DNA from: Chloroflexota bacterium
Lineage (GTDB): Bacteria > Chloroflexota > Dehalococcoidia > Lucifugimonadales > JADFKI01
Assembly (NCBI GenBank): GCA_027623195.1
Contig: JAQBUT010000005.1
Location: 78,233-142,232, forward strand
Length of the DNA: 64,000 bases
Reading direction: 5' to 3'
Below are positions 29,462-61,979 of the stretch, piece after piece. The notes below the pieces were generated by a model. That model made no database searches, was not told where the DNA came from, and saw only the letters and a list, made by a program, of their open reading frames with translations. Each line of letters opens with the position of its first letter. Position 1 is the first letter of the stretch. A program made the position numbers and the translations under genes.

Positions 29462-29543
29462 TGGGGAAGGAGGGACTCGAACCCACACGCCCGAAGGCAC
29501 ATGATCCTAAATCATGCTCGTCTGCCAATTCCGACACTTCCCC
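29462..29543 (-). tRNA. tRNA-Leu(TAG), CCA not encoded
   Basis: GGGGAAG acceptor, D-loop GGAATTGGCAGAC, CATGA-TTTAGGA-TCATG anticodon arm, variable arm GCCTTCGGGC, GGTTCGAGTCC. Confidence 0.95.
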
Positions 29544-56314: not shown

Positions 56315-57568
56315 CTACCTTCTGCTAGTGGTCCGGCGAGGCGGTGTCTTTACGGCACCGCGCCTGGGCTGGCTTCCTCCGTTTTGCCTATGGCCGTTGC
56401 GAGGCAAGTCTGGACGGTCGAAATCATTTGGTATTGCCGGTTCTGAGAAATCGTAATCGAAATCCGGCATTCGTCTACGCTGAATTTTAGAGCCCAACAC
56501 CTTTTCGATTCTACGCACCAGGACTTCGTCTTCCGACGTTGTGAGTGTTAAGGCCTCACCAGTTTGCTCGGCCCGCCCTGTACGACCGATGCGGTGGGTA
56601 TATGCGTCCACGGTATTTGGCATATCGAAGTTGATCACGTGAGATATCTCCGACACGTCTATGCCACGAGCGGCTATATCCGTAGCCACAAGTATGTCGA
56701 ACTTGCCGGTTCGGAACCCGTCGAGGGCATTTTTCCGTTGGTTCTGCGCCATGTTGCCCTGCAACGCTGCAACGCTGTATTTCTGATTCTTCAGATCAAG
56801 CGCTAGCCTTCTAGCGCGATGCTTGGTCCTGGTAAAGATAAGGACGCGGCCTGTAGCCACCTTTTGCAGCACAGCCAGCAGCAGCCTTTTCTTCAGCTGG
56901 AGTGGCACAGGGTATAAGGCGTGAGACACGGTCTTTGCCGGCGCGATCATGTCGACCTGTATGTTGACAGGATTACTCAGGATAAATTTCGACAGCGACC
57001 GAATGTCGTCAGGCATGGTGGCTGAGAAAAACAGGGTCTGTCGGCGATCCGGTACGTATTCGAGGATACGGCGAATGTCTGGCAAGAAGCCCATATCGCA
57101 CATATTATCGGCCTCGTCCAGCACCAGCACCTCAACGGACGACAGGTCGATGTTACGTTCATTAATCAGGTCGAGCAAGCGACCGGGGCAAGCCACGATT
57201 ACATCCGCGCCTCGCCGTATTGCTGCGACCTGAGGCCCTTTGTTGACGCCCCCATAGATGGGGACCACTTTGATCCGGGTGCCCTGCCCTAGTTCGCCGA
57301 ACATCTGGGTTATCTGCTCAGCCAGTTCGCGGGTCGGCGCTATGATTAAAGACCTAACGCCCCCTCTTGTGCCCTCGCTCAACTTCTGCAGAATGGGAAG
57401 AGCGAATGCAGCGGTCTTTCCTGTGCCGGTCTGGGCCAGACCCAGAACGTCTCGTCCGTCGAGTATGGCGGGGATAGCTTTTTGCTGGATGGCGGTCGGC
57501 GTGGTATAGCCCATAGCCTCAACGCCTTTTAGGATATTCGGGTTTAGAGAAAGCTGTTGAAAATTCAA
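56315..57568 (-). CDS. DEAD-box RNA helicase (RhlE-like)
   Basis: Q motif, AQTGTGKT, PTRELA, DEAD, SAT, ARGID, HRIGRTGR. Confidence 0.95.
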   Translation of the reverse strand: MNFQQLSLNPNILKGVEAMGYTTPTAIQQKAIPAILDGRDVLGLAQTGTGKTAAFALPILQKLSEGTRGGVRSLIIAPTRELAEQITQMFGELGQGTRIKVVPIYGGVNKGPQVAAIRRGADVIVACPGRLLDLINERNIDLSSVEVLVLDEADNMCDMGFLPDIRRILEYVPDRRQTLFFSATMPDDIRSLSKFILSNPVNIQVDMIAPAKTVSHALYPVPLQLKKRLLLAVLQKVATGRVLIFTRTKHRARRLALDLKNQKYSVAALQGNMAQNQRKNALDGFRTGKFDILVATDIAARGIDVSEISHVINFDMPNTVDAYTHRIGRTGRAEQTGEALTLTTSEDEVLVRRIEKVLGSKIQRRRMPDFDYDFSEPAIPNDFDRPDLPRNGHRQNGGSQPRRGAVKTPPRRTTSRR

Positions 57569-57593
57569 TACTTAAGGTTACTCCTCGATTTCG

Positions 57594-57679
57594 TTGGGCC
57601 AACTATCATTCTTAGCCCGATAGCACTTCGATTTAAGACTCCGATTATTGTAAGGGGAACCGCTAATTCGCGGGCCCTA
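57594..57679 (-). ncRNA. Candidate structured cis-regulatory 5'-leader RNA
   Basis: Closing stem GGGCC/GGCCC encloses three hairpins, two with complementary loops; starts ~7 nt after TATACT. Confidence 0.55.
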
Positions 57680-58098
57680 ATCTTTAGTATAACGTTTATT
57701 GCATGGTCAGCGCACGTCTACAGTGAATACCAGACCGAAATCCCGGCAAATCGGGCCCCCAAACGCCAATTGACTGGGGTCAAGACAAAGCTGGCACGTC
57801 TGTAATACCTCATTTCATTGCCCAATTCAGATATGTTGATTTATGAGGCCACTATTGGATTCTCCTCGGCATCTCAAAGCGTCACCTTCAGGATATTGAT
57901 AGGGCTTAGAAGCTCTTGAAATAGCGGCTCAAGCTTAATTCAGGTTTTCTTTGAATTTAAGTTCCCGTGTAACCTTCTTGATATAAACATTTAACACTGC
58001 CCAAACATATAGGCCCTTCTACGCTGGTAGTTTTACCCATGCACGTTTCAAAGGCGAAACCTGAATTTAATCGTCTGATCGGAAGTAAAGGGGTAATC

Positions 58099-58266
58099 AT
58101 GTTTCTGCGGCAACTCGGCATAGGCTCTCGTCCCGCTCTGATAATACTTTTAATTGCACTGGCCATGGTCATGACGGCATGCGGAAGTGAAACTAGCTCG
58201 GTCAAACCCAACCCAGTGATCCTTACCGTGACCTGCCCCAGTTTTATGTACCAGTTGTTATGTTAG
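58099..58266 (+). pseudogene. Truncated lipoprotein remnant
   Basis: AAGGGG RBS; signal peptide ending VMTA-C; only ~27 further residues before a stop. Confidence 0.4.
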
Positions 58267-58675
58267 TTTTACAAGCTCTGGGCTGCCTCGTGCGTGCAGG
58301 ACACCTGCCCAAGTCGCGCGCATAATGGCGTAGGCAAATTTCCGTGCGCCAGGCCATAAGGCATTCGTCGTTGACAATAGACGAATGCCTTATGGCACTT
58401 TTGAAGTGTTGTTCGGTCTTCCCCTCTACCACCCAATGCCACATAGATTTGCTGCCGATAAAAGTCGAGTTCGACCTTCCCCTCCTCAGCCACATTCCTA
58501 TCAGGGAGGTCCACAAGGGAGAAGCAATTGTTCGGGATGCTTTTGAGGAAATGTTGAAATCGACTTTCCTCGGCGCGGCCAAGTAGATGCTTTCGTCATA
58601 GAGCGGCGCATTACGGTAAAATCCCTTTGTCACTTTGAACACGGGATCCGGCTTCACAAAAGGCCGCCCTTCAAC

Positions 58676-60269: not shown

Positions 60270-61979
60270 ATGCCTAGACAGATAGACCGAAACGCTTATG
60301 CAGACATGTTCGGGCCTACCACCGGCGACAAGGTAAGGCTAGCCGACACGGAACTGTTCATTGAAGTTGAAGAGGACAGGACGGTGTACGGCGAGGAGGT
60401 CAAGTTCGGCGGCGGTAAGGCCATTCGCGACGGGATGGGACAGTCTCAGGTCACTCGCAGGGACGGCGCGGTGGACACAGTGATAACCAACGCTCTGATC
60501 CTAGACCATTGGGGCGTCATCAAGGCAGACATAGGGATTAAAGATGGACGCATTTGCTCCATCGGCAAGGCTGGTAATCCAGACATACAGCCCGGCGTAG
60601 ACACCATAATCGGCCCATCCACTGAGATCATCGCAGGAGAAGGAAAAGTGGTGACCGCAGGCGGAATCGACTCTCACATTCACTTCATATCTCCTCAGCA
60701 GATCGACGAGGCGCTTTATAGCGGCATAACCAGTATGTTGGGCGGCGGCACTGGGCCAGCGGCGGGCACTAACGCCACCACGGCAACACCGGGCGCCTGG
60801 CATCTGGGACGTATGCTCATGGCTGCCGACGCCTTTCCCATGAACCTTGGTTTCTGGGGAAAGGGTAACTCCAGCTCGGCGGAAGCCCTGGTGGAGCAGG
60901 TTAACGGCGGGGCCTGTGGTCTCAAATTACACGAGGACTGGGGCTCGACGCCATCCGCTATTGATACCTGCCTGAGCGTTGGTGACGACATGGATGTGCA
61001 AGTGCTGATTCACACCGACACCCTTAACGAATCGGGATTTGTGGAGACCACTATCGACGCCTTCAAAGGGCGCACCATCCACGCCTACCACACGGAAGGC
61101 GCAGGGGGAGGCCACTCCCCGGACATCATCAAGATTTGCGGCCAACTGAACGTTCTTCCGTCTTCCACGAATCCGACGCGGCCATTTACGGTGAACACTA
61201 TCGACGAGCACCTGGACATGCTGATGGTCTGTCACCACCTGAACCCGCGTATTCCAGAAGACATAGCTTTTGCCGAGAGCAGAATTCGGCAGGAGACCAT
61301 TGCGGCGGAGGACATTCTTCACGACCTGGGCGCTATTAGCATGATCTCATCGGATAGCCAGGCCATGGGGCGCGTCGGAGAGGTCATAATCCGCACCTGG
61401 CAGACGGCGGATAAGATGAAGCGCCAGCGGGGTCCTCTGCCGGAAGAGACCGGCGACAACGACAACTTCAGGGCTAAACGATACATTGCCAAGTACACGA
61501 TAAATCCGGCCATAGCCTGTGGCATATCGGACCATGTGGGCTCGCTGGAGGTGGGAAAGCTAGCGGACATCTGCTTGTGGACCCCGGCTTTCTTCGGCGT
61601 CAAGCCGGACATGGTCCTGAAGGGCGGCACCATAGCGGCGGCGATCATGGGTGACCCCAACGCGTCTATCCCCACGCCGCAACCGGCACATTACCGTCCC
61701 ATGTTTGGAGCATATGGGGGTTCAAGAACAGCAAGCTCGGTCACCTTCATTTCGCAGGCCGCCATCGACCAGGGAATACCGGAAGCCCTGGGTTTGAGGA
61801 AGCAGGCAGTGGCAGTGAGGAATACAAGGAGCGTTAACAAGCTTTCCATGATTCACAACGACGCCCTTCCTGAAATCGAAGTTGACCCCGAGACCTACGA
61901 GGTGCGGGCGGACGGTGTGATACTGACCTGCGAGCCGTCTTCAGTGGTCCCTATGGCGCAGCGCTACTTCCTGTTTTAG
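60270..61979 (+). CDS. ureC: Urease subunit alpha
   Basis: [34 protein letters not shown]. Confidence 0.98.

Follow-up and report, generated by a model that had tools for sequence, protein, structure and literature searches.

To our knowledge, little has been established about how bacteria set DEAD-box RNA helicase levels. Here, the leader of one such gene was analysed in a 64,000-nucleotide (nt) stretch of DNA from a Chloroflexota bacterium of the Dehalococcoidia (assembly GCA_027623195.1, contig JAQBUT010000005.1, positions 78,233 to 142,232), hereafter called the window. The leader carries a match to a motif that precedes helicase genes of a single orthogroup. Consensus copies of this motif can adopt two mutually exclusive folds, namely a short hairpin (H1) that occupies the strand complementary to the Shine-Dalgarno (SD) sequence and a long hairpin in which the SD itself is buried. 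We consider it rather probable that the motif acts as a translational switch, ON for kinetic and OFF for thermodynamic reasons, and that the window holds a divergent member of the family that is locked open.

A first system with which this locus can be compared is that of the cspB and cspC leaders of Staphylococcus aureus, in which a hairpin of the open form sequesters the strand opposite the ribosome-binding site (anti-RBS) and the locked form is favoured by the RNA chaperone CspA (Catalan-Moreno et al. 2021, PMC8034633). According to the same report, these leaders have two exclusive folds, an anti-RBS hairpin versus a buried RBS, and the regulated gene itself encodes an RNA-remodelling, cold-adaptation factor (PMC8034633), both of which recall the present locus. 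However, there is no sequence relationship, and the regulated gene encodes a cold shock protein there and a DEAD-box helicase here. Also, the open hairpin of cspB and cspC is described as long and favoured at equilibrium at 22°C (PMC8034633), whereas H1 of the helicase leader comprises 7-8 base pairs (bp), three of them G-U. As H1 is short and in no consensus leader the favoured fold at equilibrium, any ON state must be kinetic or factor-dependent.

A second system is DeaD of Escherichia coli, which is negatively autoregulated through its own 5' untranslated region (UTR), its authors proposing that it remodels its own mRNA (Ojha & Jain 2020, PMC7430678). The deaD (csdA) gene and the present locus both combine a bacterial DEAD-box helicase with its own 5' UTR, negative control being reported for deaD (PMC7430678) and proposed here. 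The deaD UTR is described as 838 nt long and as acting through the stability of the mRNA and through Rho-dependent termination (PMC7430678), whereas the motif studied here spans about 50 nt of a leader some 110 nt long, extends over SD and start codon, and looks translational. Sequence similarity between the two is absent. Thirdly, the plant 'DEAD' RNA element of DRH1-type helicase genes is reported to sense helicase activity and to provide negative feedback (Burgardt et al. 2026, bioRxiv 10.64898/2026.01.23.701338). It too is presented as a conserved RNA structure within the gene of the helicase itself, and its specificity is ascribed to a disordered arginine-rich C-terminus (same preprint); the helicase of the window likewise ends in a basic R/G/P-rich tail. 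In contrast, the plant element is eukaryotic, acts through alternative splicing and has an unrelated sequence, and its feedback is described as experimental in that preprint, while that of the bacterial leader is proposed. Lastly, the mRNA of the E. coli cspA thermosensor is reported to take up a translation-competent fold in the cold, the fold reached depending on the folding pathway (PMC6386945). It differs from the present motif in its architecture, its longer 5' UTR and its being catalogued, the Rfam scans of the window having returned no cspA match.

A conserved motif in helicase leaders

Relatives of the window helicase, with 55-70% identity, were present in 80 genome_contigs loci, most of them labelled Chloroflexota (Caldilineaceae, Anaerolineae, Dehalococcoidia, and Ardenticatenaceae) and some Acidobacteriota or Bipolaricaulota. 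A hidden Markov model made from the leader of the window and its two G004 homologues (see below) had matches directly before the start codon in roughly 50 of these 80 loci, and the core of the motif, written as a regular expression, occurred in 56. The motif is about 50 nt in size and reads GGGCUGAGAGUGCGACUUGGCUCAAyGGAGUCAAGGAGUACUU, a GTG, TTG or ATG following a few bases on. It was found in dozens of uncultured lineages and in one cultured organism, Pelolinea submarina MO-CFX1 (locus L061).

A covariance model of the motif (R1) was built from 51 leaders, the lineage of the window being excluded. In the window, R1 gave a sole match below an E value of 0.3, located in the helicase leader (Table 1), the next candidate reaching 9.9 bits; in the whole genome, the same leader was the one match. 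The score of this copy (28.1 bits) is lower than that of consensus copies. Indeed, one strong site of 53-63 bits was found in each of five large genomes, always at the helicase gene, with the next best site at 16.5 bits at most. A consensus-type copy is present within the order of the window as well (G027, 59.7 bits). Both in the metagenome instances and in the five large genomes, the motif is tied to one helicase orthogroup only. Mimicry of ribosomal RNA was considered and rejected, as these five genomes contain no second R1 site above 16.5 bits.

In agreement with the preliminary description, which recognised no named family in this leader, cmscan of the window and of related loci gave no matching Rfam family. 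In particular, the Rfam 15 scan of the whole window at gathering thresholds found nothing at the leader, a permissive scan of positions 57450-57850 returned just TMV_UPD-PK3 (18.4 bits, gathering threshold 34) and snoR43 (15.7 bits, gathering threshold 50), and a permissive scan of 16 consensus loci with E values up to 1 returned nothing relevant. Similarly, a description of the motif was not found in a literature search that covered, for Weinberg 2010 and 2017, the main text, in which no helicase-linked motif occurs, and did not extend to the 2017 supplement (PMC5737381, 224 motifs). Leaders with alternative hairpins over the SD are already known as a kind of element; the present family is absent from Rfam 15.

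Several loci carry variants of the motif. An extra hairpin within the loop of the long hairpin occurs in L072 and L084, and a duplicated CCAAG hairpin, giving a three-way junction, in L040 and L049; the insertion variants retain CUUGGCU...AGCCAAGG. A sub-type (L122, L141, L152, and L216) has a longer loop (..AAAGCAGUC..) in the same hairpin, and its CCCUCUCAG after the SD is exactly complementary to CUGAGAG (columns 8-14 of the motif), so that the SD-burying fold of these four loci uses up most of the 5' strand of H1.

Pairing and covariation of two mutually exclusive folds

In state A, columns 5-11 (GGGCUGA) pair with columns 21-27 (UUGGCUC), closed by G12-C20, to form H1, by which the anti-SD strand is occupied. 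State B consists of a single long irregular hairpin. Its LR helix joins columns 12-17 (GAGUGC) to GUACUC in columns 47-52, a 3' strand that consists of the last G of the SD and the five bases after it, and its H2 helix joins columns 20-27 (CUUGGCUC) to GAGUCAAG in columns 34 and 38-44, with the whole AAGGAG lying within the helix; G18.A and A19.G are opposed as a tandem. In many sequences, state B extends to the start codon, of which at least two of the three bases are paired in the minimum free energy (MFE) structure of 62 out of 98 leaders. Between the beginning of the motif and the start codon, each base of the consensus form can join one of two exclusive folds.

The pairing of H1 was assessed free of any selection on H1 itself by applying a pattern made of the H2 strands and the SD only (CTTGGCTY..AGYCAAGGAG) to 118 metagenome stretches, in which it occurred 121 times. 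A helicase-like N-terminus followed in 50 of these occurrences, and H1 had 7/7 pairs in 48 of them and 6/7 in the other two. In the remaining 71 occurrences, H1 pair counts peaked at 2-4, and of the seven that scored high in this set, four were helicase genes as well, which the strict regular expression had missed. The LR helix behaved similarly, with 6, 5, 4, and 3 pairs in 23, 15, 13, and 3 of 54 helicase-linked instances, respectively (4-6 of 6 pairs in 51/54), and a mode of 2 in the 67 other instances.

Covariation was examined in an alignment of 102 rows with 101 distinct sequences. Alignments A2-A4 were made without the insert-bearing loci L040, L042, L049, L072, and L084 and without the spurious matches L063:3414 and L105:335 of the regular expression, A4 also, by oversight, without L096. 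Over the 101 distinct sequences, H1 was 99.7% paired, a figure that is partly given by construction, since the regular expression applied to the genome_contigs loci requires an H1-compatible purine/pyrimidine pattern; of the H1 pairing counts, only those of the metagenome pattern (48/50 and 2/50) are unbiased. All seven H1 pairs vary one-sidedly, the pair always being kept (G-U to A-U, U-G to C-G, and C-G to U-G), and at both G-C pairs the G on the 5' side is nearly invariant, with G-C in 98/101 sequences at each. The long hairpin was 91.5% paired and showed both-sided changes at columns 13-51 (AU 51, GC 7, CG 3, and UA 1) and 16-48. RNAalifold returned H1 for 51 rows and single-sequence folding returned state B, as is expected of a two-state RNA. 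Furthermore, the pairwise identity of the motif is 81.5%, that of the initial 180 nt of the coding sequence being 68.0%, and the motif has the higher value in 95.6% of the pairs; the gaps of loop and spacer have lengths not divisible by three, which speaks against coding.

Further pairings were tried and set aside. An H-type pseudoknot, consisting of H1 and its loop (columns 12-17) paired with columns 44-49 in A2 numbering, is 82% conserved; it was rejected because its first loop would have zero length and because the same pairs nest with H2 as one long hairpin. A hairpin showing the SD in its loop (H3) has both-sided changes at columns 33-53 and 40-49, yet it forms in only 18-19 of 99 H1-constrained folds and is therefore not counted as a family feature.

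Folding energetics and mode of action

All energies given here are nearest-neighbour predictions. State B is part of the MFE structure in 99/99 consensus-type leaders. When one helix was enforced and the rest left free, the median was -13.9 kcal/mol for state A and -22.4 kcal/mol for state B, B being lower in 99/99. For full-length leaders, taken from the putative transcription start, H2 was in the MFE structure of 58/59 at 37°C and of 59/59 at 10°C, with a pair probability of about 0.98 for H2 and about 0.01 for H1 at both temperatures. Transcript prefixes that end before the 3' partner of H2 contained a complete H1 in 95/99. The direct path from A to B has a median barrier of 13.8 kcal/mol at 37°C and of 19.3 kcal/mol at 10°C, both values being upper bounds. 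The z-scores of six consensus leaders ranged from -2.5 to -5.8. In these computations, a two-state leader with an open and a locked form is predicted for the consensus family and not for the window copy, in which the locked fold is lost.

From state B being far more stable and state A being transcribed first, we infer a translational switch. H1 would form first and hold the anti-SD strand, the SD emerging free (ON), whereas relaxation from H1 to the long hairpin would bury the SD and close initiation (OFF). The weak start codon would make initiation sensitive to the fold. The likeliest input is RNA remodelling by the encoded helicase, which the precedents of DeaD and the plant element make the likeliest relaxation factor; it would speed relaxation and provide negative feedback. 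Low temperature, in turn, may prolong the lifetime of H1 and hence the ON state. Sensing of helicase activity or of cold seems the most plausible role of the motif family.

Several points weigh against such a switch. First, at equilibrium the consensus leader is OFF at every temperature computed, so that switching would rest wholly on kinetics or on a trans-acting factor, both of which are assumed, and the direct-path barriers may overstate the real ones. Second, the model makes the ON state look cleaner than it is, as the SD was fully unpaired in only 22/99 leaders when H1 was forced, with H3 in 18-19/99, and the duplicated hairpin of L040 and L049 would keep the SD paired even with H1 formed. 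Third, the comparative counts need care: beside the construction of the 99.7% value, the metagenome rows were chosen on the H2 strands themselves, H2 yields no covariation because its strands are almost invariant, and the sequences are interrelated, so that the counts overstate their independence. Lastly, as regards the window, its type of leader is known from three sequences in two genomes, and a scan of positions 57300-58300 for sigma-70 promoters and terminators gave no -35/-10 pair and one unrelated terminator-like site.

DEAD-box proteins are far better at opening duplexes that are short and weak than those that are long and stable. In a more far-reaching version, put forward tentatively and in itself unlikely, the motif might be a gauge of RNA-unwinding capacity, in which the helicase melts the weak H1 trap and the leader collapses to OFF, an effect boosted by cold, and the lineage of the window might have become fixed ON in a permanently cold habitat. 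The analysis defines an element of about 50 nt with two explicit folds, for which the window copy could serve as a natural locked-open control. If feedback through a kinetic trap is true, the leader would match the plant sensor of helicase activity as its compact counterpart at the level of translation, and would be a simple case of co-transcriptional folding used to control a gene. Otherwise, the motif still adds a family to RNA catalogues and to the annotation of Chloroflexota genomes.

The leader of the window and its closest homologues

A blastn search with the leader of the window, in 60 relatives and then in 400 genomes of the order, found a single genome, G004, as source of leaders of the same type. 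G004 belongs to the same family and a different genus. It contains two copies of the leader, 71-75% identical to that of the window and each located before a helicase gene, the encoded proteins being 82-84% identical to the window helicase. The two copies (L002 on contig C239 and L031 on contig C109) lie on short contigs, and their leaders differ from each other; the duplicate leader and helicase could be a paralogue pair, a strain mixture or contamination (6%) in the assembly. In G001, a genome of the same genus as the window, the helicase (L241) is just 59% identical and without R1 match, versus 82% and the same leader in G004 of another genus, which points, as far as sequence comparison goes, to paralogy of helicase gene plus leader or to their joint horizontal transfer.

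In the window, H1 amounts to -10.2 kcal/mol, with a pair probability of 0.94-0.98 at 37°C. Across the alignment of the window with both G004 copies, 20/21 of its cells are paired; H1 is extended by CGUC/GACG in G004, and a G-U pair has changed to G-C in the lineage of the window. The loop of H1 is altered in the window (GAAUGAUAG versus GAGUGCGAC in the family). State B has eroded, H2 being cut to 4/8 pairs and LR to 3/6 in the alignment. The energies of states A and B are -12.6 and -1.7 kcal/mol in the window, -14.0 and -2.4 kcal/mol in L002, and -20.2 and -6.8 kcal/mol in L031, respectively. In leaders of this lineage, the pair probability of H1 is 0.80-0.999 and that of H2 below 1e-5, and H1 is in the MFE structure of 3/3. 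The SD of the window is weakly paired, GAGG (57586-57583) with CCUU (57577-57574), and this 4-bp pairing alone touches it. The window copy thus lacks the long hairpin in these predictions and is classed as an H1-locked derivative and not as a typical member. In these models, it is a divergent family member that kept and strengthened H1 and lost the OFF hairpin, and it looks locked open, with little or no predicted occlusion of the SD.

Alternatively, for the window copy only, the leader may be a decaying relic, i.e., simply a normal 5' UTR that a hairpin at its 5' end stabilises, in which H1 persists by descent and has no regulatory role. The remains of the OFF hairpin fit this explanation, as do the z-score of the motif region (-0.99) and the low R1 score compared with consensus copies. 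However, the leader and its -10 region have stayed 71-75% identical to those of G004 although the proteins are only 82-84% identical, and at such protein identity neutral DNA should be far less alike; the leader is thus, judging from these identities, probably under constraint. Moreover, H1 was strengthened and not lost, as seen from the G-U to G-C change and from the CGUC/GACG extension in G004. Decay is accordingly a possible, if doubtful, account of the window copy.

Other explanations for the motif

Besides a kinetic switch, the motif could be a protein operator. One of the folds would then be stabilised by a bound protein, as occurs in the leaders of ribosomal proteins, and this protein could be the helicase, through its basic C-terminal tail, or a different RNA-binding protein. 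The motif is more conserved than the coding region, its H1 loop and its G.A/A.G tandem are nearly invariant, and its linkage to one helicase orthogroup is strict, all of which would suit a binding site; in addition, a disordered RGG C-terminus is reported as needed for the specificity of the plant helicase-sensing RNA (bioRxiv 10.64898/2026.01.23.701338). Most of this conservation is, however, explained by the pairing demands of two folds and by the SD, and the lineage of the window altered the loop while its helicase is still 82% identical to that of G004. An operator of this kind is therefore regarded as unlikely.

An equilibrium RNA thermometer, in which the SD hairpin melts on warming following the logic of ROSE or fourU elements, would account for the SD being paired in the MFE structure of 99/99 consensus leaders. 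A DEAD-box helicase is expected to be needed in the cold, and the direction of such a response would be wrong for it. Moreover, the hairpin is too stable, given its median of -22.4 kcal/mol at 37°C and the equal H2 probability at 10 and 37°C, and H1 would be left unexplained, making a thermometer very improbable.

The preliminary description had proposed a compact RNA of four stems, P1 enclosing P2, P3, and P4, with a kissing loop between UCUUA and UAAGA and a riboswitch-like sensor function. The strings on which it was based all exist on the minus strand: beside TATACT (57691-57686), these are GGGCC (57677-57673) and GGCCC (57600-57596) for P1, CCGC-GAAUUA-GCGG (57673-57660) for P2, UCGG-AGUCUUAAA-UCGA (57644-57628) for P3, and GCUAUCG-GGCUAAGAA-UGAUAGU (57624-57602) for P4, and GAGGAG (57586-57581) precedes and TTG (57568-57566) opens the open reading frame (ORF) of the DEAD-box helicase as claimed. 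P2 is robust, with a pair probability of 0.994, but it forms the inner part of a 5'-terminal hairpin (H0) and, as written, shares base 57673 with P1. The four-stem fold as a whole evaluates to -19.2 or -19.5 kcal/mol, which is 9-10 kcal/mol above the MFE of -28.9 kcal/mol. The latter value was obtained for the leader at 57560-57685 (minus strand), for which dinucleotide shuffles gave -26.9 +/- 3.65 kcal/mol (z-score of -0.55), 58 out of 200 shuffles folding as well as the leader, and its structure is without P1, P3, and P4. Indeed, the pair probability at 37°C is 0.002-0.026 for P1 (maximum of 0.06 at 4°C), 0.034-0.047 for P3 (0.002-0.047 overall), and 0.001-0.004 for P4 (0.001-0.021 across temperatures), and that of P1 and P4 is 0.0 in both G004 copies.

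When the window and the two G004 copies are aligned, 11/12 cells are paired in P1, including one double change (G-C to U-A), 11/12 in P2, 8/12 in P3, again with one double change (C-G to U-A in comparison with G004), and 16/21 in P4. Three sequences alone can neither exclude P1 nor choose between P1 and H1, and it is the wider family that decides. Collecting the leaders of orthologous helicases, as the preliminary description had advised, did uncover a conserved element, but its core is H1, which uses the 3' strand of P1 and runs through P4; as the 3' strand of P1 is that of H1 and H1 is supported family-wide, P1 was rejected, and P4 and the kissing loop found no support either. The UCUUA/UAAGA complementarity is confined to the window and missing from both homologues, the G004 loops (GGUAAUGAA or GGUAUUGAA versus GGCCAAAAA or GGCCGAGGA) sharing no 5-nt complement; when pairs of random 9-nt loops of the same composition were compared, 2.2% of trials gave a 5-nt Watson-Crick match, so that chance would produce it seldom. 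In all, the four-stem model is extremely improbable. What holds of its riboswitch-like character is that the helicase leader contains a cis-acting RNA that is conserved; nothing points to a ligand pocket, and the term therefore applies only loosely, in the sense of alternative structures. In favour of a small-molecule riboswitch, the motif is compact, lies in the 5' UTR, is highly conserved and has alternative folds in which the SD takes part. Such a riboswitch can nonetheless hardly be entertained, as the motif has two simple alternative hairpins only, with no multi-helix junction and no feasible pseudoknot, is linked solely to an RNA helicase, metabolic and transport genes being absent from its linkage, and has its conserved bases accounted for by the two folds.

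Features of the helicase gene, its leader and the window

The features of the locus are listed in Table 1. The helicase ORF contains the Pfam domains DEAD (2.4e-51) and Helicase_C (1.1e-33); it reached no equivalog cutoff in NCBIfam, its best scores being 401 for CshA (cutoff of 646) and 399 for RhlE (cutoff of 743). It is the sole DEAD-box helicase gene found in this genome, which is 87% complete, the next match being 25% identical.

Table 1. Positions of the helicase gene and of the elements of its leader in the window.
Feature	Position	Strand	Remarks
DEAD-box RNA helicase gene	56315..57568	minus	417-aa ORF, RhlE/CshA-like, basic disordered C-terminal tail
TTG start codon	57566..57568	minus	opens the helicase ORF
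Shine-Dalgarno GAGGAG	57581..57586	minus	family consensus AAGGAG
Probable -10 box TATACT	57686..57691	minus	identical in both G004 homologues
5'-terminal hairpin H0, AGGG.CCGC-GAAUUA-GCGG...CCCU	57653..57678	minus	in MFE structure
Possible weak middle hairpin, UCGG/UCGA (P3)	57628..57644	minus	0.0 kcal/mol alone; pair probability 0.03-0.05
Match to helicase-leader motif (model R1)	57574..57622	minus	28.1 bits, E 4.2e-7
Hairpin H1: GGGCUAA (57618-57612), loop GAAUGAUAG, UUGGCCC (57602-57596)	57596..57618	minus	7/7 pairs

The TATACT box lies 63 nt upstream of column 1 of the motif, comparable with a typical spacing of 58-66 nt in related leaders, as read for most of those in which a -10-like hexamer was found (75/102). 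Transcription of the helicase gene probably starts at about 57679, giving a putative leader of about 110 nt. The outer stem of H0, the inner stem of which is P2 (57660-57673), has 6/12 cells paired across the three sequences. G004 and many family members have a hairpin in its place, though the register differs and the sequence is often GCGAA(C)...(G)UUCGC, and G004 has a stronger hairpin (UUGAUU/AAUCAA) in place of the middle one. A GCGAA(C)-loop-(G)UUCGC hairpin recurs in the upstream half of leaders (e.g., L032, L047, L052, L064, L074, L081, L153, and L202), either at the 5' end or immediately before H1, and has changes that keep its pairs intact (UGAAC/GUUCA, and G-U pairs in G004). This hairpin may represent a second conserved module.

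Start codons other than ATG prevail among the 102 rows (75/102), with 43 GTG, 27 TTG, and 5 CTG against 26 ATG, one being unclear. Orthologous helicases without the motif (58-61% identity; L242-L246 in G057, G052, G003, G040, and G035, respectively) have an apparent CTG start, 5-7 nt past AGGAG, and the helicase L241 of G001 may start at ATC. Unusual start codons hence seem to be a trait of the helicase orthogroup, whatever the type of leader.

Elsewhere in the window, the Rfam scan at gathering thresholds found RF02514 (5_ureB_sRNA, 121.4 bits) at 60425-60709 (minus strand), antisense to a 569-aa ORF at 60270..61979 (plus strand); RF02514 is a family of Helicobacter antisense RNAs, and the match may merely reflect conserved urease coding sequence. 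In addition, the same scan located a bacterial large signal recognition particle RNA at 19499-19762 (minus strand, 176.7 bits) and two tRNAs at 2559-2632 and 29462-29543 (both on the minus strand).

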